Assembly: GCA_902500205.1 (NCBI GenBank)
Contig: GCA_902500205.1_4868.1
Source of the DNA: Escherichia coli
GTDB taxonomy: Bacteria > Pseudomonadota > Gammaproteobacteria > Enterobacterales > Enterobacteriaceae
Direction: 5' to 3' (one strand)
Length of the DNA: 64,000 nucleotides
In this document: piece after piece, positions 9,166 through 29,716 of the stretch
Layout of the letters: every line of letters starts with the position of its first letter
Numbering within the stretch: position 1 is the first letter of the stretch
Notes under the pieces: generated by a model
What the model saw: only the letters and a program-made list of their open reading frames with translations
Databases searched by the model: none
What the model was told of the DNA's origin: nothing
Position numbers and translations under genes: made by a program

Positions 9166-9188
9166 TCGGCGGATAAGGGTGATTGTGA

Positions 9189-12968: not shown

Positions 12969-13000
12969 AAGGGAGCTTCGGCTCCCCTTCTTTTTTTGTT
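12969..13000 (+). terminator. intrinsic terminator (UUCG tetraloop)
   Basis: GGGAGC-TTCG-GCTCCC followed by CTTCTTTTTTTG. Confidence 0.7.
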
Positions 13001-13117: not shown

Positions 13118-13915
13118 ATGTCTTTTACTTCAAAACAGAATCTGCTAAAACTCATCAACGAAGAGAATAAGATAAGCCCACCGCTTACCTTTGACGATGT
13201 TGATATCGGACTGCCGGAGGTTGTGTCAGTAGACGGTCGTGATTCGGAGGTAGTCCTTACCTCGAAGATGCGCGGTGATGAAGGTACGCAAGTGATTGTG
13301 GACTACCATCGTCGTCCATTAGAGGACTACCTTAAAGGCGATGTTGCCTTTGGAGACGAGGACGTGCAAACCACGCACGACTTACTCGCGGCGATTAACG
13401 AGCGTTTTAATCTGTCTATCTTACCTGAGGATATCGAAGATAACCCCATTGATGGACAGACGCACACAGTCGTTGCTGTTGAAACTTCCCACGAGTGGCG
13501 AAGTCAAGCGGTCATCGAGCTGAAACCTGCTACACCTCTGGCAGAAGTAATAACCAATACAGAGTTGAGCGGTCTTCTGTACCCGGATCACCAGGACATC
13601 CAGTTGGGTCAGGCGTATATCTATTCGCGCGACATCGATTGTAGCCACATCTCTCGTTTCCTGAGCCTCTTAGCGGTCGGTATCGAAGTAGATGACACGG
13701 CGTTAGCAATCGAACTCAACAAATGTGTTCCTGAGATTTGGGTGGCTGAAGATACCCCATCCCCGTATAACTTGCGTGGTGCTACTGTCGTATTCGACGG
13801 CGTACCTGCAGACTTACCGGGAGCAAATACGGCGTTCGCGAAAGTCGTGTCAGTGCAACTGACCGATAAATGTACGAACTTCCAGGGCACCCTCAACTTA
13901 CACTTTAACAACTAG
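13118..13915 (+). CDS. family-A paralog 1 (265 aa)
   Basis: Shares the N-terminal family-A pattern (..L..IN..N....P.T.......G.P......GRD...V...) and the C-terminal LHFNN-type ending with its neighbours. Confidence 0.65.
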   Translation: MSFTSKQNLLKLINEENKISPPLTFDDVDIGLPEVVSVDGRDSEVVLTSKMRGDEGTQVIVDYHRRPLEDYLKGDVAFGDEDVQTTHDLLAAINERFNLSILPEDIEDNPIDGQTHTVVAVETSHEWRSQAVIELKPATPLAEVITNTELSGLLYPDHQDIQLGQAYIYSRDIDCSHISRFLSLLAVGIEVDDTALAIELNKCVPEIWVAEDTPSPYNLRGATVVFDGVPADLPGANTAFAKVVSVQLTDKCTNFQGTLNLHFNN

Positions 13916-13925
13916 GAGGGTATAG

Positions 13926-14768
13926 GTGTCTATTTACGATAAGCCCTCGAAAGAGATGTTGTTAGATGCTATTAACCGACAGAACGGATTAACGGCCAAT
14001 CCACTCACATGGGAGCAGGTTGCAACTGGCTTCCCTGAGTCTGTCCAAACGCCTGGCGCTGACCGGAATACGCGTGTGCTCTTATACGGGTTGAACGGCA
14101 AGGGCTACAAAGGCAACGTTACGCTCGAATACGACCGTATCGAAATGGAAATTCTGTTCAGGAACGTAATACCGGTAGTCGTTGCCGACCCGGTAAATAA
14201 ACTCTCTGAGTTGTTGCCGTTTCTGAATGCGAAATACGGCTTGTCTTTAGTTGCCGACGATATCGTTGACCAGTCAGTAAAAGATTTGGGAGAAAGCTGG
14301 TTAATCGATGTGACTATTAAGCCCGGTTGCTTGGCCTGGCAAGGTGGTTTCCGTTTACGCTTTGCGAAGTTCTTCCCGAACTTGGCGGATGTGGTGACGG
14401 ATGTTGACCTCAGCGCAATTATCGCGCCGTTCGTGGTTGCTAGTAAACCACAGGCCGAGTATGTGGCGTATGGTTACGATTGGACTGAACTGCAAAAACA
14501 GTTCACCACCGATTGGGTTTACAACCGTGCAATCACTGCAGCGGATGTTGAGTTGTTGAATGAAGTGGTGCCATTAAAGTTTGCATATGTGACGGGGGCG
14601 AATGCGCAACCTGAACAAATTGCACTCCAAGGTGCACGATTTATGGGGATAACTTCAGTCACACCGAACGATAGTTACAACCCCGATTATCAGCGTGTGG
14701 CGATTATCAAGCTAGCTGCGGACAGCAACTACGCCGGTAATCTCATCCTTCATTATCTCCCGATATAA
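13926..14768 (+). CDS. family-A paralog 2 (280 aa)
   Basis: GTG start after AGGAGG; N-terminus MSIYDKPSKEMLLDAINRQN...ADRNTRVLLYG...YKGNVTLEYDRIEMEILF fits the family pattern. Confidence 0.65.
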   Translation: MSIYDKPSKEMLLDAINRQNGLTANPLTWEQVATGFPESVQTPGADRNTRVLLYGLNGKGYKGNVTLEYDRIEMEILFRNVIPVVVADPVNKLSELLPFLNAKYGLSLVADDIVDQSVKDLGESWLIDVTIKPGCLAWQGGFRLRFAKFFPNLADVVTDVDLSAIIAPFVVASKPQAEYVAYGYDWTELQKQFTTDWVYNRAITAADVELLNEVVPLKFAYVTGANAQPEQIALQGARFMGITSVTPNDSYNPDYQRVAIIKLAADSNYAGNLILHYLPI

Positions 14769-14778
14769 GGATTTTGAC

Positions 14779-15624
14779 ATGCCACTTTTAGCCACAGCTG
14801 TAAAGATTATTATCGCGGAGGTTAACGTCGAAAACAATCTCGATTTAAAAGTCGAGGATGTTGTTTTTGGTGTCCCTGCGATTCCAACGTCTGACGAAGA
14901 CTTGGCAAAAGCTAACGGTCACAACGCGATGGTGCGCATTCAGGCATTGGCCACGGCTAATGCTATCGGTGCCACTACCGTCTATTACGATCGTGTTGAC
15001 TTCGCAGACATGTTTACCGATCCGGACGGGATTCAACCTTTACGTGTTCCTGCGCGTCTCGATGCTGTTTACCAGATGCATGACGTGGTCGGGTTAATTA
15101 ACCAGTATTACGGTCTCAGCCTTAAACCTGCAGATGTGGTGAATACCGAAATCGACAGGAAGACATGGCGTGTGGATCTGATTGCCACGCCCACTTCCTT
15201 AGGTTGGATAGGGCAACAACAGGTACAGCTGTTACCAGGCGATGCGTTGCTTCCTGCAAACTTCGAACCGTTAACAGTGATGCCTTACGAGTATCCGTAT
15301 TTCAACATCAAGGTCGGTCAAGGTGCAGTTTATTCGTATCCCTGGCGCTTTGATAATTTCGCGGAGGAATTTCAACGACTAGGTGCTGCGATAACCACAG
15401 AACGTCTGGCACAGATTCTCAAAACGGTCACCGGTGATAACTGGACAACATACCGTAACCCTATCGACTTTAACCTTCGTGAAGCCGTCGTCGTCTATAA
15501 CGGGCGTAACAAAGCGGAATTACCAACCAACCCAGCAGTCGACAACGTGCTGATTGTGGAGCTGTCGTTGTACTGTCTGAATTTTGGCGGGCGTTTGTAT
15601 TTGCATTACAACGACCCTGATTAA
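14779..15624 (+). CDS. family-A paralog 3 (281 aa)
   Basis: RBS AAGGA; conserved ..YYDRVDFADMF.. segment and C-terminal ..LYLHYND. Confidence 0.65.
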   Translation: MPLLATAVKIIIAEVNVENNLDLKVEDVVFGVPAIPTSDEDLAKANGHNAMVRIQALATANAIGATTVYYDRVDFADMFTDPDGIQPLRVPARLDAVYQMHDVVGLINQYYGLSLKPADVVNTEIDRKTWRVDLIATPTSLGWIGQQQVQLLPGDALLPANFEPLTVMPYEYPYFNIKVGQGAVYSYPWRFDNFAEEFQRLGAAITTERLAQILKTVTGDNWTTYRNPIDFNLREAVVVYNGRNKAELPTNPAVDNVLIVELSLYCLNFGGRLYLHYNDPD

Positions 15625-15645
15625 TCCTGAGTAAAGGAAGTAAGA

Positions 15646-16557
15646 ATGAAACCTTTAAACAAAACGTCCGATAAGCTGGTTCTGGATTTTATTAATGAGA
15701 AAAACCCAGACGCAGAACTGGAACTTTCTAAAATAACGCTCGGCACACCGACCCCTATTAGCGATGAAGGTGCTGATCGCAATACCAGCATGACCCTGAC
15801 TGCGAAAAAGAACTCCGGGTACATCGGTACTCAGGACGTGACTTATAATCGCCTGGAAGGCGGTGCGCTGTTCCGTAATGTAACAGCATACCTCGACGTT
15901 AAACTGCCGAAAACCACCACAGACCTGCTGACGACCCTGAACACCCAATACGGATTGAAGCTGACCGAAGACGATATCGTTCCGGCGGCTATTCCGGAAA
16001 ATACCAACCCGCCGCTGACTAACCCGAACGATCCGGACCCAGCACCGGTTGACCATGTCATTACCTTCAAAGAAGACTGCTACGCTTATCTGGGCAGCAT
16101 CCCGGTTAAAATCGGTGCTAAGCCTCAGGTTGGTGAACGTCTGAGTCTGGTGGTAACACAAACCAAGCTCGACGGCCTGGTTTACCCAGATGGTCCAAGC
16201 GAAGCGAAGGGTCAGGGCTACATCTACTCTTACGGTGTAGACTGCACAGCAATCGCAGCATTCCTGAAAGTACAGGCGAAAGGTGTTATCGCTGGCGACT
16301 CTGCATTCCCGGTTGAGCTGAATAAAGTTGTGCCGGAACTGTGGGTTGCATCTGATGAGCCTGCGGATTATAACCTGAAAGGCGCTAACGTGTTGTATGT
16401 TGGTTCTACTGCTGACGATGGCACTGCTTCAGGCGACGAACCTAAGAAACCGGTTGAAGGTGCAAACACTGCTTACAACCAGGTTCTGCTGCTGCAGCTG
16501 GATGACACTCTGTGCACCAACTTCCAGGGCATCATGTACCTGCACTTTAATGCCTAA
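15646..16557 (+). CDS. family-A paralog 4 (303 aa)
   Basis: RBS AAGGAAG; N-terminus ..KLVLDFINEKNPDA...ADRNTSMTL... and C-terminal CTNFQGIMYLHFNA almost identical to paralog 1 ending. Confidence 0.7.
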   Translation: MKPLNKTSDKLVLDFINEKNPDAELELSKITLGTPTPISDEGADRNTSMTLTAKKNSGYIGTQDVTYNRLEGGALFRNVTAYLDVKLPKTTTDLLTTLNTQYGLKLTEDDIVPAAIPENTNPPLTNPNDPDPAPVDHVITFKEDCYAYLGSIPVKIGAKPQVGERLSLVVTQTKLDGLVYPDGPSEAKGQGYIYSYGVDCTAIAAFLKVQAKGVIAGDSAFPVELNKVVPELWVASDEPADYNLKGANVLYVGSTADDGTASGDEPKKPVEGANTAYNQVLLLQLDDTLCTNFQGIMYLHFNA

Positions 16558-16568
16558 TTAGGCCTCGC

Positions 16569-16610
16569 TGGGAGGAGGAAATCCTCCTCCTGGCTACTCC
16601 TTTCTTTTTT
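16569..16610 (+). terminator. intrinsic terminator
   Basis: GGGAGGAGGA-AAT-CCTCCTCC hairpin followed by a T-run. Confidence 0.6.
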
Positions 16611-16626
16611 GGCCGAGGAGGCTATT

Positions 16627-17466
16627 ATGGCTTTATATAGTCTGTCTCAGCGACAATATCTGTACGATGCGATTAATGCCGAAAACCCGGATGCTGTTCT
16701 ACCGATGGGTTTAGACAATGCTATCATCGGTACGCCGAAAGCAATCACACCGACAGCAAGCGGTGCCAACACCGAGATTATCATTCGTGGTCGTCAAGGT
16801 CGTGGCTATATCGGTCCTCAGACGTTCCGTTATAAGCGCTTGTCGCTGAACGACTTATTTAAGAACATGACACCTCAGGTAACTGCACCGAATGCCTACG
16901 GTTGGTTGAACGTGGAGTCGAAACGTACTGCGTTTGCGCAGAACCTGAACGGTCGTTATGGATTAAACCTGGTTGCAGACGATATCCCAGAACAATACGT
17001 TTATCTGAACGTAAACAACACGATGCGTATTAACGCTAGCTGTATCCAATACACTGGCAGCATCACCTTTATGTCTATCCGGGGTAAGAATAGCCTCGAA
17101 GACCTCGTGGTAAACGACATCTTGTTGGCTTTGAACCACCCTGCAGCAGCAAGCACTGGTAAGAAATACATGGGCTTCTTGACGTACGGGGAAGACTTTA
17201 CCGATGAAGTGCAGGTTATGGCCTCGTTTAAGAACGGGCGAATGGATGTAGGAAGTAACTTTGATTTGGGTTACACGTCCAATCTGATGGCCACATTGGT
17301 CGCACGTGGGGTACCGTCGTTTGATCCGACGAACTGCACAATTACCCGCTACAAAACGAGTGAGTTGGCGACCGCCAATAAAGCGTACGATAACGTATTG
17401 CTGATTACCGGCATTCAGAACGACCCGAAAGTAATCGGCGAGTGTATGTTGCACTACAACAACTAG
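16627..17466 (+). CDS. family-A paralog 5 (279 aa)
   Basis: ATG 16627 after GAGGAGG; C-terminal ..MLHYNN. Confidence 0.65.
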   Translation: MALYSLSQRQYLYDAINAENPDAVLPMGLDNAIIGTPKAITPTASGANTEIIIRGRQGRGYIGPQTFRYKRLSLNDLFKNMTPQVTAPNAYGWLNVESKRTAFAQNLNGRYGLNLVADDIPEQYVYLNVNNTMRINASCIQYTGSITFMSIRGKNSLEDLVVNDILLALNHPAAASTGKKYMGFLTYGEDFTDEVQVMASFKNGRMDVGSNFDLGYTSNLMATLVARGVPSFDPTNCTITRYKTSELATANKAYDNVLLITGIQNDPKVIGECMLHYNN

Positions 17467-17476
17467 GAATTAGCGA

Positions 17477-18364
17477 ATGGCTATTTATCAACCTTCTAAA
17501 GACGTCCTGTTGGCAGCAGTGAACGCACAGAACTCGCTTGCTGTTAAGATGACTGACATCATCTGGTCCACGCCAAAGGACATCCGTGGTACGGAGAAGG
17601 AAACGCTGACTAACCGTAACACGCAAATTAAAATTACGGCAGATGGGGTAACGGGCTCTACCTGGTCGGGTAAGAAAAATGTCTTCTACAACCGCATGAA
17701 AGTCGAAGACTTGTTAGTGCTGATCGGTGACACGTTGGCGATCGGCCCATCCAACGAAACCTTGTATGCGGCCATTCCTGGACTGAACCAACGTTACGGT
17801 TTTGTTCTGGAAGAAGCTGACCTGCAGGACGCAGATATCGAGTGGAACGGTGATAAGACCGAAGGAACTGTGCGCGTTGTTGCACATCCAGAGTCTATCG
17901 GTTGGGTTGGACAGGCGACATTTAAAGTCGTGAAAGGTGATGAGTCGTTAGTCTCTGCAGTCACCACTAACGTCCTGACCGGTCTGAAATACCCGAACGG
18001 TCAGATGGGTTCCGAAACCGTTACTGCGGTCATTGCAGAGGTTTATTCCTACCCGTACAACTTCACTAAGTACCGAGATGCTCTGCTGGCATACAAGCCG
18101 GGTATTCTGTCTGGACAGCCGTTAACGGATATGGTTAACCTGCTGAAAGATATTACGGGTACTGCATGGGTAGCGACCACTTCCGCTTCCTACGGTTTGG
18201 CGGGCGCGGAGGTTATCAGCGTTGGTCTGAATGACCCTGTTGCAATGCCGACAAACGCGAAGTACAAGTATGCGCTGGTGTTGAAACTGCCTGTTACCTG
18301 TACCACCATCGTCGGAACGTTGTATCTCCAGTTCAACGATCTGGACGATCCAAGCGAGGTATAA
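17477..18364 (+). CDS. family-A paralog 6 (295 aa)
   Basis: N-terminus MAIYQPSKDVLLAAVNAQN...NRNTQIKIT...; C-terminal ..LYLQFNDLDD. Confidence 0.65.
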   Translation: MAIYQPSKDVLLAAVNAQNSLAVKMTDIIWSTPKDIRGTEKETLTNRNTQIKITADGVTGSTWSGKKNVFYNRMKVEDLLVLIGDTLAIGPSNETLYAAIPGLNQRYGFVLEEADLQDADIEWNGDKTEGTVRVVAHPESIGWVGQATFKVVKGDESLVSAVTTNVLTGLKYPNGQMGSETVTAVIAEVYSYPYNFTKYRDALLAYKPGILSGQPLTDMVNLLKDITGTAWVATTSASYGLAGAEVISVGLNDPVAMPTNAKYKYALVLKLPVTCTTIVGTLYLQFNDLDDPSEV

Positions 18365-18367
18365 TTG

Positions 18368-19195: not shown

Positions 19196-19200
19196 GTGTA

Positions 19201-19226
19201 GGGGCTCTTCGGAGCCCCCTCTTTTG
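19201..19226 (+). terminator. intrinsic terminator (UUCG tetraloop, short T-run)
   Basis: GGGGCTC-TTCG-GAGCCCC followed by CTCTTTTGG. Confidence 0.5.
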
Positions 19227-19242
19227 GCGATGCGGAGTCCCT

Positions 19243-20655
19243 ATGCTATTTTACTCGAAGGAGTCGGCACTGCTTGTATACGACCAAGTCAATCGGGATA
19301 ACCCTGATTTAGTTGTTAAGCTGACGCCGGCTATCGCTGCTTTAACCGGCGGCCCAACTTCAGTTACGTTAAACCAACGTAACACCAAAGCTGTTTTCAC
19401 CGGGTATCCAGGGACAGGTGTACAAGGTAATGTTACCGTGTACTACGACCGGATTAACCTGGCCACTTTATTTAATTTTGTGCCGACTGTGGCTATCAAA
19501 GATACAGTCTTAACGGTACGAGACGCGCTACCTGCAATAAACGACGCATTGGGGCTTACATTAGTTGCTTCTGATTTGCAGTCACCTGACGCAAGTTTAC
19601 CTAAACCGAGCGCTTCGCCGCAGACGTTGAAATTAAATATCTCAGGTAATTGCCCTGCGTTTACAGGCAGCTTAACGATACGTTATACCGTCCCGAGCGG
19701 TGCAATTTACCCCGATTCTGGACCTGGCCCTAAAACGTTGCTGCAAGGTAACACTATCGCGGGTTATTTCGGAACAACCACAATTGCAGAGTTGTTTACA
19801 CACTCTCAACTTCTTAATGCCACTATATCGGCCGGTGCGTTACCACCGGTACATTCTGGTGCCGAAGGTTGGTACAAGTTCTTTTACCAGGGTAGGGTTA
19901 TTTACCTCCCGATCAGTCCTGTCGCTAGCTCCATCTCCTGGAATACGTTATATACAAACGGACTCGTTTACGGAACAGATGATAATGGTAAATACCCTGC
20001 GGCGACGCCCGTTAACCAGGGACGCATCATTAGCTTTACAGGCGCAGACAACAAAAGGTTTTACTTCCGCGTTCGTCTACCTAGTGCTGGGAAGGACCCA
20101 TACGTCAGCGGCACCCCAACTGCCGCTGAGTTAGCAGGTAGTGAGTTTGAGATGTTCAACTTTCTGTATAATGGAACGTGGGACAAACCGATTAACAGTT
20201 ACTGGACGCTGTTCTGTTTATTGAAAGATACACTGAAGACCAACGTCGCCTATCATCGCATGGCGACGTTGTCTGGAGCCAGTTGGACAAACTTAGGAAA
20301 ATCATCGAGCGCAGGCAACTACTACTGGTTCCCGGTGCTGGAGTTGGTGGATAAATCCACAGTTACCTTGGGTTTAGAAGATATCCATGGTGCGGTAGAT
20401 TACAGTCTCCAACCGTGCAGCGTGTCCGCAGAAAACACGTTTAGTCTCAAGCCGTTGGTGCTCGGTAATCCAGATACTACCGATTTCGAACCGGTAGTTG
20501 TTACTTCAGAAAACAGTTTCGCACTGCATCCGCCTGCTTTAATGCTGCCGAAGACAGTCGATTTCCAACCTATTGCGGCTACCGCTGAAATGTATACGCC
20601 CCCTGACAAGACAACGTTAACGTCTCTTAACGGTGAACTGGACGGCTTTAAGTAG
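19243..20655 (+). CDS. family-A N-terminal domain protein with extended C-terminal region, ends NGELDGFK (470 aa); cassette copy 1, gene a
   Basis: N-terminus MLFYSKESALLVYDQVNRDNPDL...NQRNTKAVF...VYYDRINLATLF; contains SGPGPKTLLQGN..GYFG; C-terminal SLNGELDGFK. Confidence 0.7.
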   Translation: MLFYSKESALLVYDQVNRDNPDLVVKLTPAIAALTGGPTSVTLNQRNTKAVFTGYPGTGVQGNVTVYYDRINLATLFNFVPTVAIKDTVLTVRDALPAINDALGLTLVASDLQSPDASLPKPSASPQTLKLNISGNCPAFTGSLTIRYTVPSGAIYPDSGPGPKTLLQGNTIAGYFGTTTIAELFTHSQLLNATISAGALPPVHSGAEGWYKFFYQGRVIYLPISPVASSISWNTLYTNGLVYGTDDNGKYPAATPVNQGRIISFTGADNKRFYFRVRLPSAGKDPYVSGTPTAAELAGSEFEMFNFLYNGTWDKPINSYWTLFCLLKDTLKTNVAYHRMATLSGASWTNLGKSSSAGNYYWFPVLELVDKSTVTLGLEDIHGAVDYSLQPCSVSAENTFSLKPLVLGNPDTTDFEPVVVTSENSFALHPPALMLPKTVDFQPIAATAEMYTPPDKTTLTSLNGELDGFK

Positions 20656-20666
20656 AGGTATCATCT

Positions 20667-21665
20667 ATGTCTTTTACTTTGCGTTGGAAAAATCCAAACG
20701 TAATCCCTACGGTAGTAAAAATCTACCGTGACGTTAAAGATATCACACCAAGCGCTTTGCCTGAACCGATTGCAACGCTCTCAAATGGCGAGACAGAATG
20801 GCGTGATGCCACCGCCAAACCAGGCGCAATCTATTATTACCTTCTAACGGTAACCGCCAACGGTAAAACAGTGGCATCGTCTAGCCAGAAATACACCATT
20901 GAGATAAAGCGTGGGATTGGCCCAATGACTATTCTAAACGGTAACGACCGTTTAGGGTTTATGGGTGCGGTTCCTTACGACGAACAATGGCTTCCGTCGC
21001 AAATGCCACCTGCATTTTTGGCGATGTTCCCTAATCTATTAACCGATCGTGTGGCGTTGTATAAATTTACCCGAAACGGGAAAATCTATTACATGCTATC
21101 TAATACGTCGCAGTTCCCGAATACGCCTGTGGACTGGGCTTCCCTCTATCAAGCCGGTTTAGTCTATGGTACAGGCGATGCTGGCCCAGAGAACGGCCAT
21201 GGAACGCTACCAGACACTCCACAAGACGCTAAGATAGTCCACAAAGGGGATACGTACATTATGCGGCTTCCTCGCGGCCTGACGATGTCTAGCGAGCCTC
21301 CTGCGTATCCTTTCGTAGCTGACTATAATGGGAAAACCCATGATGAAATCGCTTCTCTAACCAACCCGTGTGAGTATAACGATTTACTTTACACGATGGT
21401 TAACGAGGTGCCGTGGAAACAGCGTTGGGCTAACTGGGCAACGAACAGTTATACTTTTCTGGGGCAGGGTACTTTGGGAACCTTGGCAGCGTATTTCGGC
21501 GGTGGTGTTCTCTGTATGGAACACGACACCGCGGAAGACCGTGTGCTCCATCGTGGTATCTTTAACAATGCCGGTGGAACACCCGTATCAGCGATTCAGC
21601 GTATAAACTATTTATCACCCACCACGAAAGGGCGTTACTACCCTATCTTTGAACTGGTCGAGTAA
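20667..21665 (+). CDS. cassette copy 1, gene b (332 aa), structural-type protein
   Basis: Paralogous to 24121-25107 (shared IYRD..ITPSALPEP.ATL.NGETEW.D, GL.YG..GPGPE.GHG.LPD). Confidence 0.65.
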   Translation: MSFTLRWKNPNVIPTVVKIYRDVKDITPSALPEPIATLSNGETEWRDATAKPGAIYYYLLTVTANGKTVASSSQKYTIEIKRGIGPMTILNGNDRLGFMGAVPYDEQWLPSQMPPAFLAMFPNLLTDRVALYKFTRNGKIYYMLSNTSQFPNTPVDWASLYQAGLVYGTGDAGPENGHGTLPDTPQDAKIVHKGDTYIMRLPRGLTMSSEPPAYPFVADYNGKTHDEIASLTNPCEYNDLLYTMVNEVPWKQRWANWATNSYTFLGQGTLGTLAAYFGGGVLCMEHDTAEDRVLHRGIFNNAGGTPVSAIQRINYLSPTTKGRYYPIFELVE

Positions 21666-21674
21666 GGGGCAGTC

Positions 21675-22598
21675 ATGACTATACGGTTAAGCTGGCCGTC
21701 CCAAGCCAGCAAAGGTCTTACCGCGATTGAAATCTACCGCAAGGAAGGTTGGAACGCAACAATCGACGTTTACAATCCAGGCACACCCCACGCAACTTTA
21801 TCAGGCAACGCGGTAGAGTTCGTAGATAATATCGATACCCTGACGAAGAATACAACCTATCGTTATTGGGTAGCTGCTGTGAAGGACAGTGAACGACTTA
21901 TCGGCAATCCGATTACGCAAGGATTCTATCCGGACACCGGGCCGGGTCCGCAAACAATCCTGCGCGGTGACTGGGCTTCAGGTTATTTCGGTACAGTACC
22001 GAATACAGAGTTCTTTAATACTGCCGAGTTAAAACTCATGTTAACTGCGCAGCAGGGAAACATGTTTGTCTACGACCCTCAGGAATGGCACAAGTTTATT
22101 TTCCGTGGGAGAATTGTCTTCTTCCCAGCGACGATGCATTCGAAAACCAACTCGGTACAAATGGCGTATCAGTACGGTATGATGTACGGGACCGATGATG
22201 TCGGAAGTATTGTTCCGCAGGGAGCCACGGCGACTAAACAAGATTGTAAGGTCACGAAGGATGGTCGTACGTACCGTATCCGATTACCTTACGCAGTCCC
22301 GTACGACGCTGTTCTCTCAGGACAGGATTACAACAACGGTGAATGGCGAAACACAATGGGCCGTTTGTATCCTGTCGGTGCAGAGTTCGCAGCCCTCGGT
22401 CTTGGTGCGATTGACTCACTTGCAAGACAAGGCGCGACTGCGCAGCCGAATGAGTCAGGTGCCGCTGTATTAGCTCCTTTGTGGAGCAACAACATATTCG
22501 CTTATGCGTATGGCACCGTGCCTATGGGGATTAGTAACACCGCAGGTGTCGGGAACTCGGCCACGATATTCTTTGCTTTCGAATTAGTCTTACCGTAA
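21675..22598 (+). CDS. cassette copy 1, gene c (307 aa), structural-type protein
   Basis: Paralogous to 25110-26009 (IEIYRK.GWNATIDV..PGTP.ATL.G, TTYRYW.AAVKD.ER, TGPGPQ..L.GDW..GYFGTV, C-terminal ELVLP). Confidence 0.65.
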   Translation: MTIRLSWPSQASKGLTAIEIYRKEGWNATIDVYNPGTPHATLSGNAVEFVDNIDTLTKNTTYRYWVAAVKDSERLIGNPITQGFYPDTGPGPQTILRGDWASGYFGTVPNTEFFNTAELKLMLTAQQGNMFVYDPQEWHKFIFRGRIVFFPATMHSKTNSVQMAYQYGMMYGTDDVGSIVPQGATATKQDCKVTKDGRTYRIRLPYAVPYDAVLSGQDYNNGEWRNTMGRLYPVGAEFAALGLGAIDSLARQGATAQPNESGAAVLAPLWSNNIFAYAYGTVPMGISNTAGVGNSATIFFAFELVLP

Positions 22599-22611
22599 CG
22601 GAGTAAAAGCC

Positions 22612-24108
22612 ATGGGGTTGTATACAGAACCTTCAATGGAACTGCTCTGCCAACAAATTGTGCGTGACAATCCCGGTTTAGCAGGAAAAATCACCGCTGA
22701 CTCCGTTGGGGTCAGGGGTGTTCCTGTTGCGAGAAACGTTAACGGACGAAACACACAGATTACGTTGGTAGGAAAACCTGGTAAAGGATTTGCTGGGGAA
22801 ATAACGGTATATTACGACCGGTTGAATCTGGCCAGTCTGTTCAAGTCTGGCCCGAATATGGTGAGTATTCCACGTAGCGCACAAACCCATGCGGAAGCGT
22901 TACCGGCGTTCAATGAATTGAACGGGTTGAACTTAACCGCGAGTGACATCACCAGTCCAAACGTTGCATTAATGAAATACGCTACGCCGGAAACTATAAC
23001 TCTGACGGCGCACGCTAACTCCTTGTGCTATACCGGGTCATGCAAGATGACCTATGTTTACGAACCGATTGCGATGTATCCGAAGTCGGGCCCTGGGCCA
23101 AAAGGATTAATGGCCGGTAATGAGTTATACGGATTCTTTGGGCTGGTAAGCGCGGAAGAGTTATTCACATCTGATGAAATGGTGTATGCCCTCTATAACG
23201 GCACCAACTGGCCTAACCGCTACGCTATCAAGTGGCTCAAATTCTTTCTGAATGGGGCGGTAGTGTTTGTTCCGACCCGTGCGATTTGCAACGTTACCTG
23301 GGCAGACCTGTACAACAAGGGTGCAATATTTGATTCCGGAGACGCAGGACCTCGCCCGAAGTCGACTTACACACCTGTCGATGTTGAACAGTTGAAATAC
23401 ATGGTAAAACGGGATGATGAAGGAACGCATTATTTCAGAATGTCTATCCCGTATTACACCGAGAACGCCGCCGCGCCTGATTGGAGTAAACCGCCGTCAA
23501 TCACCTCTATCCTGTCACTGACCAGCAAATTGGGGTCGGTGAACGTATATGGGGAATGGGGAACTCTTAGCACGACTGATGCTAACTTCCTGGATTCCGT
23601 GTGGTTACGACACCAGTTCGGTGCCGACCAAGCGTATTACCAGTCTATCAGTGGGAGCTATCGTTCATACACCTACATCTACACCTCTTCTGGCTTTTGG
23701 CCAATCCTGGAGATGTTTGATGTTGCCAATGAACCTGTGCCGTTGATTGACGAAGGTGCAGAACTAACATGGGCACCGTCCGTGGTTACTCTGACGGACA
23801 TCGACCAAAATGAATCGCTTCGTGTGGTGCCTATTACGGAAACCTCCGCTGCAGCGAATCCACGTCCGTTAGTTTTCAACACCGACAACACCGAAACTGC
23901 CACCCCTGCCTGGGTGCGGGAAGCGTCATCAGACTCACCACGTCCTCTGCTTGCCACGACGGACAATGATGAACGTGCATATTCCGTCGCGGTAACAGGC
24001 ATGGCTAGCGTTAAGATTAGACCGATTATTCTCACGACTGACCAAATCGCCCAACCTTCAAAAATTACTCTGGGCGATACTAACGGTGAGTTGGATGGAT
24101 TCCAATAA
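22612..24108 (+). CDS. family-A N-terminal domain protein with extended C-terminal region, ends NGELDGFQ (498 aa); cassette copy 2, gene a
   Basis: N-terminus MGLYTEPSMELLCQQIVRDNPGL...NGRNTQITL...VYYDRLNLASLF; contains SGPGPKGLMAGNELYGFFG; C-terminal TNGELDGFQ. Confidence 0.7.
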   Translation: MGLYTEPSMELLCQQIVRDNPGLAGKITADSVGVRGVPVARNVNGRNTQITLVGKPGKGFAGEITVYYDRLNLASLFKSGPNMVSIPRSAQTHAEALPAFNELNGLNLTASDITSPNVALMKYATPETITLTAHANSLCYTGSCKMTYVYEPIAMYPKSGPGPKGLMAGNELYGFFGLVSAEELFTSDEMVYALYNGTNWPNRYAIKWLKFFLNGAVVFVPTRAICNVTWADLYNKGAIFDSGDAGPRPKSTYTPVDVEQLKYMVKRDDEGTHYFRMSIPYYTENAAAPDWSKPPSITSILSLTSKLGSVNVYGEWGTLSTTDANFLDSVWLRHQFGADQAYYQSISGSYRSYTYIYTSSGFWPILEMFDVANEPVPLIDEGAELTWAPSVVTLTDIDQNESLRVVPITETSAAANPRPLVFNTDNTETATPAWVREASSDSPRPLLATTDNDERAYSVAVTGMASVKIRPIILTTDQIAQPSKITLGDTNGELDGFQ

Positions 24109-24120
24109 GAGGTAACGACA

Positions 24121-25107
24121 ATGGCTTTTACAATTCGTTGGACGAACAATAACCCTGGGGCTTCGACCGTGAAGCTGTACCGCGACACCAAACCTCTGGT
24201 GCGTACGGCATTACCTGAACCTCTGGCAACGTTCACTAACGGGGAAACTGAGTATACTGACCGAACAGCGATACTGGGGACAACGTATTACTACATGACC
24301 ACTGTGACAGTGGGAAGCCGAACACTGTTCAGTCCGCAGAAATCAATTCTGATTCAGAACCGTCGCGGTATCGGCATCGTGACTCCACAGTACGGTGATG
24401 ACCGCTTTGCGTATTACGGGTATGTGGCGTACGGTGAATTGCCTAGCGCGGCTGATTATCCGCCAGGGTTTGTGGCCATTTCTGGATATGACCCAACTGT
24501 TAAGCCGGGCTTGATTAAGTTCCAGCTAGACGGTAAAATTCTGTATCTGTTTAGTGGTCTTCGTGTGAACGGCAACACGCTGTATAGCCGTGATGCGATT
24601 TATAACGCGGGTTTGCTGTACGGTGTGGAGGGACCTGGTCCGGAAGGCGGTCATGGTGATTTACCTGACGTTGACCAGGCTGGGGAGTTTACGTGGTTGG
24701 GTGACCGCTATCGGATGCGCCTGCTGCGCGGGTTAACGCTCGACAGTGAAAGCCCGGTCATGACACTCGACGCACAGTGGAACGGTAAACTCCATGACGC
24801 GTCACCGTATACTGCCGATAGCGAATACAACCGACTCATCTATGGGATAAGTAGCTGGTTCCCAGAAAAGAAAAAAGTGATGTCCCTGATAAAGTGGTCG
24901 AACACCAGCATATTCGGAAGTGGATCGCTGGTGGCAGGCCGTGGGGCGCATTGTCAGGAGTTTGACCCAGACAGTAAGTTGGGGCTGACGCGCGGATGGG
25001 CGGCGGCGGATTCCACTGATACCGTGGATAACCTCCAGCGTATACAACATGTCCCTGCGACCGTGGGCGGTATTTGGATTCCAGTAATCGAGCTTATCGA
25101 GGATTAA
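24121..25107 (+). CDS. cassette copy 2, gene b (328 aa)
   Basis: Paralog of 20667-21665. Confidence 0.65.
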   Translation: MAFTIRWTNNNPGASTVKLYRDTKPLVRTALPEPLATFTNGETEYTDRTAILGTTYYYMTTVTVGSRTLFSPQKSILIQNRRGIGIVTPQYGDDRFAYYGYVAYGELPSAADYPPGFVAISGYDPTVKPGLIKFQLDGKILYLFSGLRVNGNTLYSRDAIYNAGLLYGVEGPGPEGGHGDLPDVDQAGEFTWLGDRYRMRLLRGLTLDSESPVMTLDAQWNGKLHDASPYTADSEYNRLIYGISSWFPEKKKVMSLIKWSNTSIFGSGSLVAGRGAHCQEFDPDSKLGLTRGWAAADSTDTVDNLQRIQHVPATVGGIWIPVIELIED

Positions 25108-25109
25108 TC

Positions 25110-26009
25110 ATGCCTATTACATTAAACTTTGCACAACGGAAGCCACAGGCGCTCGATAACATTGAAATCTATCGCAAGACGCCGGGCAACGCCACCATTG
25201 ATGTTAATGCACCGGGAACGCCTCTGGCAACCCTTCCGGGTGACGCTACATCGTACGAAGACAACGCTGTGGAAAACAACACCACTTACCGTTATTGGAT
25301 AGCTGCGGTTAAAGACGGTGAGCGTGTCTTCAACACCCCTACCGCCCAAGGGTTCTTTTTAGACACCGGGCCTGGCCCCCAGAAACTGTTATACGGCGAC
25401 TGGCACGCCGGATACTTTGGAACAGTAACGCCAGCAGAGTTATTCACTAACGCGGAACTGAACAGCCTCGTGGTGAATATGTTCAGTTCCGCCGTTGGTG
25501 CCTGGCATAAGTTCATTTACAAAAACCGTATTCTGTTTATGTCCGATAACTCGATAATATACGCTAGCCCGCAGTTCATTTATAACCAGGGGCTGATGTA
25601 CGGCCAGGATGGCAACGGATATGTGCCGAGCTGGGCTAGTGCACGTAACCAACGCCGCACGGTGACGAAAAACGGTTACGAATACGTGGTGCGCTTGCCG
25701 TATTTGTTCGACTACAAATACTGGACGTCTTTCGTTGGAAGCGGTAACACCGAGTTGTATCTCGACGGTGAGTGGTTTAACACCTTCGCGCGCCTGTACA
25801 ACTACAGTGGGCAGTTTCCGCGCTTTGACGACATTCCGGTCGGTCCAATCGATTCGGTTACTGCCCAACAATCTGCATTCTTTGCGGCTATGAATAACTT
25901 GTCCGCTCAGTGGTACAACCGTCCACCCTACCCAGAGTCGCCGTCATGGGGTAACTACGGTACCGATACAATACGCTCTATTGCGGTACTTGAACTCGTT
26001 CTGCCTTAA
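25110..26009 (+). CDS. cassette copy 2, gene c (299 aa)
   Basis: ATG 25110 (MPITLNF..) chosen over the upstream in-frame start; paralog of 21675-22598. Confidence 0.6.
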   Translation: MPITLNFAQRKPQALDNIEIYRKTPGNATIDVNAPGTPLATLPGDATSYEDNAVENNTTYRYWIAAVKDGERVFNTPTAQGFFLDTGPGPQKLLYGDWHAGYFGTVTPAELFTNAELNSLVVNMFSSAVGAWHKFIYKNRILFMSDNSIIYASPQFIYNQGLMYGQDGNGYVPSWASARNQRRTVTKNGYEYVVRLPYLFDYKYWTSFVGSGNTELYLDGEWFNTFARLYNYSGQFPRFDDIPVGPIDSVTAQQSAFFAAMNNLSAQWYNRPPYPESPSWGNYGTDTIRSIAVLELVLP

Positions 26010-26029
26010 CAGGAGACTTCATGGGATTG

Positions 26030-26065
26030 TATAGCGCACTTTACCATAACAGCTAAAAATAGGCC
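26030..26065 (+). pseudogene. 11-codon remnant resembling a collapsed family-A gene (MGLYSALYHNS)
   Basis: AGGAG RBS plus ATGGGATTGTAT.. similar to the start of gene 22612 (ATGGGGTTGTATAC..); ending ..LYHNS resembles family C-termini (..YHYNS, ..LHYNN). Confidence 0.3.
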
Positions 26066-26088
26066 CTTCGGGGCCTATTTTCTTTTTT
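26056..26088 (+). terminator. intrinsic terminator (UUCG tetraloop)
   Basis: AATAGGCCC-TTCG-GGGCCTATT followed by TTCTTTTTT. Confidence 0.75.
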
Positions 26089-26099
26089 AGGACGTTGCA

Positions 26100-27419
26100 A
26101 TGATCAACTATAACAAACCTGTCATGCAACTGGTTTGGGATCAGATTAATCGTGATAACCCGCAGCTCAAGAAACCGCTCAACGCAACCAACGTGGCGTT
26201 ATTACAAGGTCCTTTAACCAATGCCTTGCGCGATGGTCGCAACAGCCGTATCGTGGTAAACGGATTACAGGGTGGTGGTTACAGCGGTAAGATGGACATC
26301 TACTACGACCGCTTAAACCTTTCGCAGTATTTTAAAGGCGTCAGCGTACCGGTTAAAGTACCTTATCGGGCGACGGTCTACCGCGACATCATCGATCGGA
26401 TTTCCGCAGCTTGTGGGTTGGTGCTTACTGCTGACGATTTAACGTATCCTGACAGCCAGTTTGCAATGATCACTGTGGCAACGGGCGATCGGACGGTGGC
26501 GATTAAATCGGATAACCCCGCATTCACGGGTTATATTCCTATTAGCTTTATTCGTGAAGAGCCCAGCTTTGCCGACTTGTACCACACCACCGAAACCGGA
26601 GCTTGGGAACCCATGGATGTTTACAGCACGGTCTATCGACTCGACTGGAGCATGTACACTCAACAGATAATCAATATCCCAATGGGTACCCCGCTGCGAC
26701 TAAACAGTAACTCGTACATGACCCAGTTCATCGCGGCGCTGTCGGCATGGTCGGGCATCCCGTTCACTATCGGTAATGCTGCTACTGATAACCCGTATGA
26801 CCTCTATGGGTATGTCGCTACACGCAATAACAACCCAGGCTTAGACCCTGATATGCGTGGGGAGTACAAATACTGCGTGAAGTTGACGCCACCTGAGGAT
26901 ATGGGTAATCTCCGCCGTCCGTTCTTCTTGCACTTTGGTCCGAAAAATAACGTGGCCTATTTGGCGCAGGAAGAGGACGTCGAGCGTTATGCGCGTTACA
27001 TGAGTTTCCGGGAAACCAGCCCAAATTCGATGAGCGTCACGTTGTATCAAAACGAGTACGTGTTGACTCGGGCAGAATCGCCTGAAACAGCGGATGATTT
27101 AACGGGTTCCCCGTATGGCACTCGATACTGTACCGGGAGTATTCGACGGCTGATGCAACACGCGTTTCCGACCGAAGAGATGTTCCAAGAAAGTATTGCT
27201 AACCGACGTCGGGTACTGTACCACACTGCTTACACCACCACGACATCAGCTATTACTTACCAGGGATTATACCGTAACGGATACCAATCCAAACAAATGA
27301 CGAGCCTCTACTCGAATTACTGTAACTATTTCATCTATTACGACCCAAGCAAAGGCGGCTATATGGTCTACAGTCCATATAGCAAAACCGCCCCGGTCCC
27401 TTGGTATCCACCGCTATAG
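26100..27419 (+). CDS. family-A N-terminal domain protein, 439 aa, C-terminal SKTAPVPW motif
   Basis: N-terminus MINYNKPVMQLVWDQINRDNPQL...DGRNSRIVV...IYYDRLNLSQYF; C-terminus YSPYSKTAPVPWYPPL related to next gene. Confidence 0.65.
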   Translation: MINYNKPVMQLVWDQINRDNPQLKKPLNATNVALLQGPLTNALRDGRNSRIVVNGLQGGGYSGKMDIYYDRLNLSQYFKGVSVPVKVPYRATVYRDIIDRISAACGLVLTADDLTYPDSQFAMITVATGDRTVAIKSDNPAFTGYIPISFIREEPSFADLYHTTETGAWEPMDVYSTVYRLDWSMYTQQIINIPMGTPLRLNSNSYMTQFIAALSAWSGIPFTIGNAATDNPYDLYGYVATRNNNPGLDPDMRGEYKYCVKLTPPEDMGNLRRPFFLHFGPKNNVAYLAQEEDVERYARYMSFRETSPNSMSVTLYQNEYVLTRAESPETADDLTGSPYGTRYCTGSIRRLMQHAFPTEEMFQESIANRRRVLYHTAYTTTTSAITYQGLYRNGYQSKQMTSLYSNYCNYFIYYDPSKGGYMVYSPYSKTAPVPWYPPL

Positions 27420-27433
27420 ACTAAGGTGCCACC

Positions 27434-29611
27434 ATGTCCTACACTCCTGATTTAGTGGCGACCGTGATTCGGTCGCTCAACCGTAAAAACGCGGTCGCCA
27501 GAGCAGTAGACCCCGCTAACGTACGCCTGGTGTCCGTGGCGCATCGTGACGAAAAAACCCTAGACGTCACACTGACAGGGGGTCCGGGGTATTCTAGTTA
27601 CGGTCAAATTACGGCCCAGGTCACGAAGCAAAATATTGCTGATTATTTCGCTAAGGTTAAGTTGGATGCCATTCCCACTTGTGCGTCCATCCACGAACTG
27701 TTGCCACATTTAGACACTCTACTAGGGATTACCTTTTTAACCGACGACTTTGAAGACCTGCCCATCACTTGGACAAACAATGCTGCGCGCATCACGTTCC
27801 AGGCGAAACAGACAAGTCTTATCTGGTACGGCAGCCAAACGCTAGATGTGATAAACGGTGACGTGGATATCAACACTGTCTACACTGTTACCAATATCAT
27901 TTTCACGCTAAAGGCTGCGAATAAACAGCAGTGGATTAACTTCTACTCTAATGCAGCCAAACGGATCGTGGATCTTGATAAAGTCGATGTCAGCGCCCCG
28001 ATGTCCCCGGAGGATATAGGCCAAACCTCTGCGTATAACAGCGTCGTAGCTTTGACCGCTAGACCGGGGAGCGGGATGTTTGGAACGAAGTATGTGTTCT
28101 TCTCACGTAACAAACTCGAGACATATGCAGGCAAAACCACATACGTCCCGGACGATTTCACCGGTAGCCTGCATGATGCTCTGGCCATCGAGACACTCGG
28201 CATTCGGAGTGTTTTTGATGTAAACGAAATTGCTCCTGTAGAGAACCTGACAGGCGAGTGGCCGAGACAAGTGCAATTGGCACCCGTAGAGGGTTCGTAC
28301 AAAGTCATGGGCAGCGCCACGTTGAATGTGGCACGCTATCAAGATAACGAGCAAACCCTTAACCTGAACTACACAACTACGTCGCAACTTTCGGACAGCT
28401 ACTGGGCCACAACGTTGATCAACCATGCGGCCTGCGGGCGTTTGTTTGTTAACGTGACCGTAGATGCGGGGGCTTTCGTTTATCGCGACAGCAACCTGAA
28501 ACCGACGTTCGTTATCGACGAATTGCCGCAAATTGGCGAGGTGGTTTGGAACTTCGTTAACCGGGGAACCATTCTTGGTCGTGGTGGTTCGGGTGTGGTC
28601 TACTCTATGCCTGCGAACACATCAGCGGACGGAGCTGACGCAATCCACATTAGCGATACCTTCCGTGGCAAAGTCACCATCGAAAACTACGGCACCATCG
28701 CCGGTGGTGGGGGTGGGGGCGACTACTATGCGTTTAGCACCACCAAGATCGGTGGAGCTGGTGGTGCGCCTCTCGGGCCAGGCGCGGCGGTGCCCAGCGA
28801 CACCAATAACCGTAACGGCTTAGCTGGGTCCCGTGACAAAGGCGGTGCTACCCAGTTAGTCGTCGCGCAATTTACCGGCTACCAGAGTCGCTACTATGGC
28901 GGTCCGGGTGGGGATTGGGGCCAGCCGGGACGTTATACAGCGTTCGAGCAATGGAACACCCCGGCTACCGGCTCGCCGGTCTATGTCTACGGTCGTGAAG
29001 ACGGGATGTCATGGACTCGCCCTGGGATGGCAGGCGAAGCCGTCGGTGGGAATAAAAGTATCGTCAACTGGGTATCCGTCGGAACGGTGAAACCGAATGT
29101 CACCGACGAGTACCAAGAGTTCCTCGACTACCTCGCAGATTTAGATGCCAACCGACTGGCTAGTGCGGATGGGATAGATAAAGTCACCGACCCAACCAAA
29201 CCTGTAGTTGTGGAGTTCTTAGGTACGATTATTTCAGGTACGCTGTTCAAAAAGCAAAACATACCCGGCGGTTTGGTGGGAACACCATACGGCGATGCTG
29301 TAGCCAACTTACCAGCCACCACATTGTTTGGTATCATGGCACACTGTGTATCGGAGTTTGATATTGTGCACGACACTTGGCGTTACAACCGCGCGGTAAT
29401 GTTCACGCTAAAACCCGCACCTACCGGGGCGATTAGCCTCGCTGTGGAACGCAACCGGGTGAAATCGGCTACCAGTAGTGCACCGGTGGAGAAGTTCTAC
29501 GTCGATCGCTTCGTGTATTACGATGCGTATCTCGGTAAAATGATGGAATGTAATCCGTATACCAAATCTGCCCCTAAACCGTGGGTGCGGCCAACGATAC
29601 CGTTATCGTAA
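27434..29611 (+). CDS. family-A-related large protein, 725 aa, Gly-rich internal segment, C-terminal TKSAPKPW motif
   Basis: Weaker N-terminal family resemblance; internal GGGGGGDYYAFSTTKIGGAGGAPLGPGAAVP; C-terminus NPYTKSAPKPWVRP parallels the preceding gene. Confidence 0.65.
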   Translation: MSYTPDLVATVIRSLNRKNAVARAVDPANVRLVSVAHRDEKTLDVTLTGGPGYSSYGQITAQVTKQNIADYFAKVKLDAIPTCASIHELLPHLDTLLGITFLTDDFEDLPITWTNNAARITFQAKQTSLIWYGSQTLDVINGDVDINTVYTVTNIIFTLKAANKQQWINFYSNAAKRIVDLDKVDVSAPMSPEDIGQTSAYNSVVALTARPGSGMFGTKYVFFSRNKLETYAGKTTYVPDDFTGSLHDALAIETLGIRSVFDVNEIAPVENLTGEWPRQVQLAPVEGSYKVMGSATLNVARYQDNEQTLNLNYTTTSQLSDSYWATTLINHAACGRLFVNVTVDAGAFVYRDSNLKPTFVIDELPQIGEVVWNFVNRGTILGRGGSGVVYSMPANTSADGADAIHISDTFRGKVTIENYGTIAGGGGGGDYYAFSTTKIGGAGGAPLGPGAAVPSDTNNRNGLAGSRDKGGATQLVVAQFTGYQSRYYGGPGGDWGQPGRYTAFEQWNTPATGSPVYVYGREDGMSWTRPGMAGEAVGGNKSIVNWVSVGTVKPNVTDEYQEFLDYLADLDANRLASADGIDKVTDPTKPVVVEFLGTIISGTLFKKQNIPGGLVGTPYGDAVANLPATTLFGIMAHCVSEFDIVHDTWRYNRAVMFTLKPAPTGAISLAVERNRVKSATSSAPVEKFYVDRFVYYDAYLGKMMECNPYTKSAPKPWVRPTIPLS

Positions 29612-29654: not shown

Positions 29655-29690
29655 TGCCCTCTTCCCCACGGGGAAGAGGCTTTCTTTTTA
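29655..29690 (+). terminator. intrinsic terminator
   Basis: CCTCTTCCCC..GGGGAAGAGG hairpin followed by CTTTCTTTTT. Confidence 0.7.
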
Positions 29691-29716
29691 TGACCCTATC
29701 AACTCAGGAGGTTATC

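Follow-up and report, generated by a model that had tools for sequence, protein, structure and literature searches.

The stretch 13118-29611 of the DNA analysed here (the window, 64,000 nucleotides of contig GCA_902500205.1_4868.1) raises the question of what role is played by an array of related proteins that takes up ~7% of a 240-kb phage genome. By its sequence, the window belongs to a Seoulvirus jumbo phage of the SPN3US kind: the 16.5-kb stretch aligns over its full length with Escherichia phage vB_EcoM_EC001, Enterobacteria phage SEGD1 and Salmonella phage SPN3US at 98.2-98.4% identity. SPN3US is a phiKZ-related jumbo phage, and a preprint on phage Goslar (Basu et al., bioRxiv 2026) names the family Chimalliviridae. 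Gene numbers (gp) were assigned from the SPN3US mutation and proteome tables, and the window genes correspond one-to-one to SPN3US gp138-150, gp154, gp155 and gp160. These genes have been described as SPN3US 'paralog family B' (Thomas et al. 2016, Ali et al. 2017); the array is thus the published DUF7941 or 'paralog family B' set, already known, and its recovery here is a rediscovery, not a new system. The SPN3US family (gp83, gp138-154, gp160/161 and gp237; see also Scheuch et al. 2023) has the same genes, order and domain content, with ~98% DNA identity. Its published list pools proteins carrying the shared N-terminal domain (NTD) with proteins made of an FN3 domain and a second domain, called here domain X, and omits gp155, though gp155 clearly has the NTD. 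As to the role of the array, we lean, by a little, towards flexible mixed filaments that would lie outside the virion, independently of the tail, and would serve to catch the host surface or flagellum early on, with low affinity.

The family was delineated by several independent comparisons. All-vs-all BLASTP among the members gave E-values of 1e-8 to 1e-62, the seven short proteins being mutually linked over their full length (1e-8 to 1e-41) and the long proteins aligning to the short ones across residues 1-150. A hidden Markov model (HMM) of the NTD region recovered each member with E-values of 1e-36 to 1e-56, as well as the gp122 homolog, which was absent from its training set (9.5e-18). 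Pfam PF25613 (DUF7941) was found in the 10 proteins scanned directly, at 41.7-292 bits against a cut-off of 27 bits; four further members were assigned by phrog_1037 or by the NTD HMM (E <1e-41), and gp141 orthologs carry a precomputed PF25613 match. The short proteins span the whole 276-position model and the long ones positions 1-150/170 only. The paralogy is real, far beyond chance, as had been proposed in a preliminary description of the locus. That description counted twelve members in the stretch, seven short ones of 265-303 residues, which were all recovered, and five long ones, of which four exist (439, 470, 498 and 725 residues), the fifth corresponding to SPN3US gp151, deleted in the window. 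In all, 11 of the 15 genes carry the NTD and 4 do not. The further copy that it placed at 32493 is the gp160 homolog, and a thirteenth DUF7941 protein, at 3093-3626, had escaped it. The shared domain, estimated there at ~80 residues, is ~150 residues long according to the HMM envelopes, a structural model of gp141 and the 150-residue chain of phiKZ gp127. It had rightly recognised the LH(F/Y)N ending common to the short members. This motif also ends phiKZ gp127 (...LIHYN), is found in a looser form in Goslar gp33 and gp34, and is internal in the 439-residue protein (residues 277-281).

The homology extends to the fold. The window-NTD profile matched PDB entry 9xqd_0 (PHIKZ127) with an E-value of 9.5e-8. 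The AlphaFold 2 (AF2) model of gp141, built from 26 aligned sequences, has a mean predicted local distance difference test (pLDDT) of 87 and a predicted template modelling score (pTM) of 0.52, with two confident globular domains separated by a linker of pLDDT 62-70. Searched with Foldseek, this model had 9xqd_0 as its sole significant PDB match (E 7.1e-6, probability 1.00, target TM 0.67, 163 columns), the phiKZ gp127 of PDB 9XQD being itself an AlphaFold 3 (AF3) prediction docked in a 4.4-4.7 A map. PhiKZ gp127, which with gp126 is assigned to the outer peripheral baseplate, shares with the short members a homologous NTD, the layout of NTD, linker and C-terminal domain (CTD), and the C-terminal motif. 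More broadly, window proteins matched Goslar gp22, 23, 31, 33 and 34 and phiKZ gp126, 127 and 143. The best window match of Goslar gp22 was gp141 (BLASTP E 5e-11, full length), and those of phiKZ gp127 were gp140, the best of all, gp143 and gp141. The linker was not better conserved than the domains, with a column identity among paralogs of 0.21-0.27 versus ~0.25 overall.

To describe the array gene by gene, HMMs were built for each recurring segment and mapped over it. Terminator-like hairpins (Table 1) split the array into three units. Unit 1 (13118-19195) holds seven genes, each made of NTD, linker and CTD. Unit 2 (19243-26009) is a three-gene cassette present twice: in the product of gene A an NTD is followed by domain X, then by a spacer rich in repeats and by a tail that ends in ...NGELDGF, and genes B and C encode an FN3 domain and domain X with no NTD. 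Unit 3 (26100-29611) comprises the gp154 and gp155 homologs. Domain X is common to gp146, gp147, gp149 and gp150 and to the 470- and 498-residue proteins. In the AF2 model of gp147 (pLDDT 91.5, pTM 0.88) it forms a 220-residue domain beside the FN3 domain, and the FN3 fold is found in four proteins of the array. The four genes without NTD are assigned by this domain content to a linked second family. The gp154 homolog matched phrog_1037 across residues 1-287 and phrog_6409 across residues 312-436, and gp160 matched phrog_4862, its tail being common to gp145, gp148 and gp160.

The clearest cargo is found in the gp155 homolog, whose NTD is followed by a second, degenerate copy (residues 173-301, independent E-value 2.8e-5 with the NTD HMM). 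Residues 362-553 matched Pfam GP38 (PF05268) with 67.9 bits versus a cut-off of 25 bits (E 1.5e-18), covering profile positions 51-214 of 218. The protein also matched PDB 6f45_D, a chain named 'Receptor recognition protein' (E 0.0025), and phrog_2056, 'tail fiber protein; host specificity' (E 7e-20), and several GGxGG-type motifs lie in its glycine-rich region. These matches establish a genuine adhesin domain of the gp38 type. When the glycine-rich region was searched together with the following domain, called domain Z, only close orthologs were returned, amid low-complexity word matches. T-even gp38 uses an N-terminal domain of its own to bind the long tail fibre at its tip. The likeness of gp155 to it (PF05268; 6F45 chain D) concerns the glycine-rich adhesin domain, residues 346-553; positions 1-50 of the GP38 profile were unmatched in gp155, where the two DUF7941 NTDs form the N-terminus in place of the fibre-binding part and domain Z is added after the adhesin.

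Copy number in the array differs between relatives. The window has seven short genes, two cassettes and the gp154/155 pair; SPN3US has seven, three cassettes and the pair; phiEaH2 has seven and three cassettes with the pair absent; and CR5 has nine short genes, one cassette and the pair. Same-position genes of the two window cassettes are 39-43% alike and genes within one cassette ~30%, so the three genes were duplicated as a block. The C-terminal half of domain X diverges. Exactly gp151-153, a 3,447-bp segment forming the third cassette of SPN3US, is missing in the window, and likewise in the E. coli phages EC001 and Lh1B. At the junction, with a microhomology TAGCG(C/T)AC, a fossil reading MGLYSALYHNS* begins with the opening codons of a gene of gp151 type and ends with the closing codons of a short-type gene; we read it as the mark left by the deletion of the third cassette. 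A longer fossil lies at the same spot in SPN3US (~22275-22400), MGFYSSTALELLCRLIQRDNPQHAGRISWS* and then ...GIAYFHHNS*. Cassette counts and junction fossils indicate that the array evolves by birth and death, with recombination between paralogs. A cassette number of 1 to 3, the loss of the adhesin pair in phiEaH2 and a clean recent loss resemble the behaviour of host-range modules, which we count in support of a role in host recognition. An apparent divergence after the first cassette in phage SPAsTU was discarded as an artefact of the linear start of that record. In phiEaH2, a gene annotated as exopolysaccharide (EPS) depolymerase (7942-9759) stands directly upstream of the array; the array-segment HMMs found no DUF7941 NTD in its product.

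The family reaches well beyond these phages. The NTD profile retrieved 3,441 clusters (at 50% identity) among 1.84 billion representative proteins, and among the best 148 of the 3,441, about 60 have two to four tandem NTDs in one chain. The cargo of long relatives comprises GP38, ConA-like lectin (up to six copies), BNR/sialidase-like, arabinofuranosidase, SPRY, Ig and propeller domains, and the order NTD-NTD-GP38 of gp155 was found again. DUF7941 domains also occur in Spiroplasma proteins with signal peptides. Strings of tandem NTDs and uniformly extracellular-type cargo fit a filament displaying binding modules like beads on a string. In one library protein of 1,496 residues the NTD profile matched partially at 11 places; its C-terminal domain is a DUF285 of Mycoplasma type, and Pfam called no DUF7941 in it. 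This protein is possibly found on the surface of a mollicute, which would agree with the DUF7941 domains reported in 2026 from Spaid-like proteins of Spiroplasma.

What such proteins may do is suggested by the Goslar work (Basu et al., bioRxiv 2026). There, gp22 and gp23 are high-copy proteins (~580 and ~2,140 copies), purified gp22 forms filaments in negative stain, and in the AF3 prediction each NTD receives the linker and CTD of the preceding subunit. The same head-to-tail docking was predicted for Goslar gp22/gp23 and for phiKZ gp126-gp127, and the authors proposed a baseplate-anchored 'DUF7941 fibre cloud' for host recognition. The window array is alike in its Pfam family, in its two architectures (NTD-linker-CTD and NTD plus tail), in having two very abundant members and in the host-binding cargo of some members. 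The architecture of gp160 is that of Goslar gp23, itself a high-copy protein. The window phage, Goslar and phiKZ each have an NTD-only gene close to the endolysin, and gp160, Goslar gp23 and phiKZ gp143 all lie in such a position. The two systems differ in sequence (25-32% identity), in arrangement (10 members at several loci in Goslar versus 11 in one block here) and in cargo (glycoside-hydrolase or leucine-rich repeat domains there, gp38 adhesin and domain X here).

Transposed to the window, the NTD would be a protein-protein docking and self-association module. If the short members behave like their homolog Goslar gp22, each would hold the linker and CTD of the preceding subunit on its NTD, and they would form head-to-tail, probably mixed, flexible filaments. 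Abundant gp141 and gp160 would be the bulk subunits, and the long members, present in few copies, would bring host-binding cargo to the chain, either within it or attached to it. Each cassette, with one NTD-bearing domain-X protein and two FN3-plus-domain-X partners, would be hung on it via the NTD of gene A, and the last unit would contribute the gp38-type adhesin through gp155. The resulting cloud outside the virion would make the first contact with the cell surface or flagellum. Several observations support this scheme: the lower-confidence linker between two confident domains in the gp141 monomer model; the frequency of tandem NTD fusions, an indirect sign of self-association; the extracellular-type cargo and the signal peptides of the Spiroplasma members; and the position of the array ~10 kb from giant baseplate or fibre paralogs in a phage type whose infection, in SPN3US, needs the flagellum.

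The idea of an anchor with diversified C-terminal parts, as put forward in the preliminary description, was right in part and anticipated the 2026 Goslar proposal. It holds for the long members, which fuse the NTD to different modules including the gp38-type adhesin, and fails for seven of the eleven, which are full-length NTD-linker-CTD paralogs with no variable cargo. In the light of the Goslar work the domain itself would be a polymerisation module and not merely a passive anchor. The depolymerases that it envisaged were not recovered, no depolymerase, trimeric fibre, beta-helix or tailspike fold being detected in the array proteins, and the proteomics of SPN3US finds every array member on tailless heads, not on the tail that usually bears receptor-binding sets.

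The SPN3US orthologs, ~98% identical to the window proteins, were all detected in CsCl-purified virions with 40-97% sequence coverage (Table S2, PMC10052503), so the array proteins are structural. Both gp141 and gp160 are highly abundant there, gp141 as the most abundant full-length member and gp160 as the second most abundant member overall. Heads of SPN3US tail-tube mutants, tailless and filled with DNA, have been purified through two CsCl gradients, one step and one buoyant-density. In these data the normalised head/wild-type ratio is 1.31 +/- 0.19 for 19 array proteins; the major capsid protein stands at 1.39, and no tail or baseplate protein exceeds 0.06. Earlier tailless preparations had given the same head assignment. 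As the orthologs stay on tailless heads, attachment in the SPN3US lineage would be tail-independent, on the head or neck. Two other members of the family, gp122 and gp237, are tail-dependent in SPN3US. For gp122, wild-type virions gave 22 peptide-spectrum matches and tailless heads 0; it thus departs from the pattern of the array proteins, and it may correspond, on the side of the tail, to phiKZ gp126 and gp127. It was not retained as the unique equivalent of phiKZ gp127, whose best matches lie in the array as described above. No homolog of phiKZ gp139 or Goslar gp32, which form the band ending at gp127, was found in the window by BLASTP and phmmer. A rough estimate from spectral counts gives 850-1,840 array-protein copies, or 26-57 MDa, per virion. 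Spectral counts per kDa were 3.6, 3.6 and 4.8 for gp145-147 and 10.3, 13.3 and 5.1 for gp148-150, agreeing within ~2.6-fold in a cassette, which permits a stoichiometric domain-X complex and does not prove it.

Not all of these data favour external filaments. The tailless-head ratios and the earlier head assignment fit an internal location as well as an external attachment to the head. Filaments have not been imaged directly on SPN3US or Goslar virions, the 'fibre cloud' being a proposal; the high-resolution capsid maps of Goslar and phiKZ contain no ordered DUF7941 density; and polymerisation was shown for one Goslar protein only. PhiKZ gp143, whose gene (5694-6227) adjoins the endolysin and whose match to the NTD profile is weak (E 1.6e-5), appears in print both as a virion structural protein and as a 'lysis regulator': expressed from plasmids, it alters the timing of the holin, and transposon sequencing marks it as non-essential. 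Not every member need therefore be a fibre subunit. The ...NGELDGF tails of gp145, gp148 and gp160, which are significantly similar to one another, might conceivably be relocated donor peptides, an idea without statistical support: a positional equivalence with the linker is obtained via phrog_2935, and identification with the short-member linker motif (..LDGL.YP) was rejected, 32-68 of 200 shuffles having reached the observed linker-HMM score. All these points weigh against the scheme, and we retain it by a narrow preference. A more specific form of it, in which mixed filaments anchored on the head or neck would be the first host- or flagellum-capturing organelle, with a 1:1:1 hetero-oligomeric domain-X tip per cassette and a host range tuned by cassette gain and loss, is held only tentatively and is on the doubtful side.

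The best surviving alternative, unlikely in our view yet to be taken seriously, is the original SPN3US reading ('head ejection?'), in which the proteins are internal, packaged with the DNA and possibly ejected into the cell, where they might polymerise or act on the envelope. Being undiminished in DNA-filled heads of independent tail mutants through both gradients is what this reading expects, and their large mass would suit the unexplained extra mass and internal 'amorphous zone' of the SPN3US head; the lack of ordered density on capsid exteriors also agrees with it. Unlike the cleaved proteins gp53, gp54, gp47 and gp50, however, the array proteins have no propeptide or prohead-protease site, and all are rated unlikely to be cut by gp245, the protease of the prohead (Table S6). 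Pfam scans of the array proteins gave no match to PF12699, the domain of the phiKZ-like internal head and ejection proteins (paralog family A). The cargo found in the family (gp38 adhesin, FN3, lectins, sialidase-like domains) consists of surface-binding modules, Spiroplasma DUF7941 proteins carry signal peptides, and phiKZ gp127 was modelled outside, on the baseplate rim. A supplement note tentatively tying gp160 and gp141 to the internal vertex 'antlers' of SPN3US could not be followed, the antlers of Goslar and phiKZ being built of other proteins.

A second alternative, which we regard as decidedly improbable, is a fibre cloud of the Goslar type, with filaments issuing from six outer peripheral baseplate sites and with the presence on tailless heads explained by co-purification. 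In the phiKZ structural atlas (Nat Commun 2026), one gp127 caps the gp139 band in each baseplate star lobe, and the window NTDs are homologous to it; the array also adjoins tail and baseplate genes, and gp122 and gp237 behave as tail proteins. Goslar gp22 self-assembles with no other phage protein, so free filaments could exist in lysates. The phiKZ case differs in having about three members, with gp127 once per lobe, and in that the SPN3US array orthologs are tail-independent. Free protein filaments should band far from DNA-filled heads, given their buoyant densities. The 19 array proteins followed the capsid protein through the step and buoyant-density gradients, and baseplate proteins were at least 15-fold lower in the same samples; because the ratios track the capsid protein, an anchor on the baseplate alone cannot explain them. 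The Goslar preprint makes no mention of the SPN3US data.

An ordered decoration or cement at fixed shell sites, in the manner of Hoc or Soc, is very unlikely: head association by mass spectrometry, the FN3 fold of four array proteins and the central protrusion, with no protein assigned, on SPN3US hexamers would suit it, but the capsid maps of Goslar and phiKZ (~3.5 A) give decorator, latch and vertex proteins to other genes, and 19 paralogs of very unequal abundance are a misfit for fixed icosahedral sites. A diversifying non-structural family, the other option raised in the preliminary description, can be dismissed almost entirely, its only hint being the weak relative phiKZ gp143 and its effect on holin timing from plasmids, with none for the array itself, against the presence of all orthologs in purified virions at high coverage and the absence there of known non-virion proteins.

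Multi-valent receptor-binding sets with a conserved N-terminal anchor are known from the tailspikes of phage CBA120 and from gp63.1 and gp66 of phage G7C. The array resembles them in joining a constant N-terminal docking module to exchangeable distal modules and in its change of copy number between relatives. It differs from them in the missing trimeric beta-helix or tailspike fold, in that most members have no cargo, in a docking proposed from paralog to paralog along a chain and not on one adaptor, and in its independence of the tail in SPN3US. A possible analogy, with no sequence relationship, is offered by the head filaments or capsid fibres of the flagellotropic phages phiCbK and 7-7-1, flexible appendages of first contact that do not depend on the tail. 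The Goslar authors themselves, in writing of collar filaments, cite such fibres on the capsid of 7-7-1, a flagellotropic phage of Agrobacterium that their text calls '7-1-1'.

The coordinates of the array and of its surroundings are collected in Table 1. For four genes the longest open reading frame (ORF) had a wrong start (16609/16627, 18365/18368, 25074/25110 and 29654/29690, the second being correct). SPN3US N-terminal peptides (Table S6) back the downstream ATG of gp142, gp144 and gp150 and confirm the GTG start of gp139; in gp142 the N-terminus is processed by methionine aminopeptidase and has Ala at position 2. The endolysin start rests on the RefSeq annotation and on the preceding terminator hairpin.

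Table 1. Positions of the DUF7941 array, its hairpins and neighbouring genes in the window
Feature	Position	Strand	Basis or remark
gp122 homolog, 177 aa, NTD only	3093..3626	+	NTD HMM (listed at 2994-3623); Pfam PF25613 E 7e-18
Tail genes gp123 and gp124	3626-7117		directly after gp122 homolog
Terminator-like hairpin upstream of array	12971..12986	+	
Short member 1, gp138, 265 aa: NTD + linker + CTD	13118..13915	+	DUF7941 E 3e-68; domain map
Short member 2, gp139, 280 aa, GTG start	13926..14768	+	Pfam E 1e-70
Short member 3, gp140, 281 aa, most divergent N-terminal motif	14779..15624	+	BLASTP, HMM
Short member 4, gp141, 303 aa	15646..16557	+	AF2 model, Foldseek, BLASTP to Goslar gp22
Short member 5, gp142, 279 aa, ATG start 16627 (not TTG 16609)	16627..17466	+	HMM, domain map
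Short member 6, gp143, 295 aa	17477..18364	+	BLASTP, HMM, domain map
Short member 7, gp144, 275 aa	18368..19195	+	Pfam E 6e-87 over full model
Terminator-like hairpin between short-member and cassette units	19201..19218	+	
Cassette 1 gene A, gp145, 470 aa: NTD + domain X + repeat spacer + ...NGELDGF	19243..20655	+	Pfam, domain map
Cassette 1 gene B, gp146, 332 aa: FN3 + domain X	20667..21665	+	BLASTP, domain map
Cassette 1 gene C, gp147, 307 aa: FN3 (1-85) + domain X (90-307)	21675..22598	+	
Cassette 2 gene A, gp148, 498 aa: NTD + domain X + spacer + ...NGELDGF	22612..24108	+	Pfam, domain map
Cassette 2 gene B, gp149, 328 aa: FN3 + domain X	24121..25107	+	BLASTP, domain map
Cassette 2 gene C, gp150, 299 aa: FN3 + domain X, ATG start 25110	25110..26009	+	BLASTP, domain map
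Gene fossil, 11-codon ORF MGLYSALYHNS*	26021..26056	+	
Strong intrinsic-terminator hairpin closing cassette unit	26056..26090	+	
gp154 homolog, 439 aa: short-type unit (1-287) + domain Z (~310-439)	26100..27419	+	phrog_1037, phrog_6409
gp155 homolog, 725 aa: NTD + degenerate NTD + gp38-type adhesin (~346-553) + domain Z (557-725)	27434..29611	+	
Terminator-like hairpin after unit 3, upstream of endolysin	29658..29679	+	
Endolysin, gp156 homolog	29690-30307		glycoside hydrolase family 108 (GH108) + peptidoglycan-binding domain
DUF1353 protein	30596-31237	+	PHROG 'tail assembly chaperone'
Weak peptidase-M15-like protein	31247-31762	+	
gp160 homolog, 182 aa: NTD + short tail ...NGELDGF..., no CTD	32493..33041	+	Pfam E 1.3e-10
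gp161 homolog, DUF4376	33122-33793	-	
Two adjoining genes, radical SAM domain proteins in SPN3US	34298-36569	-	SPN3US RefSeq labels of counterparts
Giant baseplate/fibre paralogs gp168-170	39811-52946	-	

Among the neighbouring genes, the gp161 homolog figures in the paralog family B list of 2017. The array-segment HMMs found in it no DUF7941 NTD and no other array domain, and gp161 is labelled 'non-virion' in the 2023 SPN3US data; it is probably outside the DUF7941 family. The DUF1353 and M15-like proteins lie between the endolysin and gp160, and their SPN3US counterparts are non-virion or close to the detection limit. The pair with radical SAM counterparts follows immediately downstream of the gp160/gp161 region and is kept in phiEaH2 and CR5.

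The role of the array is still debated ten years after it was first noticed, for proteins that, from rough spectral counts, amount to tens of megadaltons per virion, and two lines of work disagree: SPN3US genetics and proteomics place the proteins in or on the head, and the Goslar and phiKZ structures lead to a fibre cloud on the baseplate. Filaments borne by the head or neck, if they exist, would reconcile the tailless-head proteomics of SPN3US with the filaments of Goslar, and would represent a new kind of phage head appendage built by the polymerisation of paralogs. The answer would show by what means the chimalliviruses, a group of interest for phage therapy, locate their hosts in the first place, and whether their host range can be re-engineered by swapping cargo cassettes.

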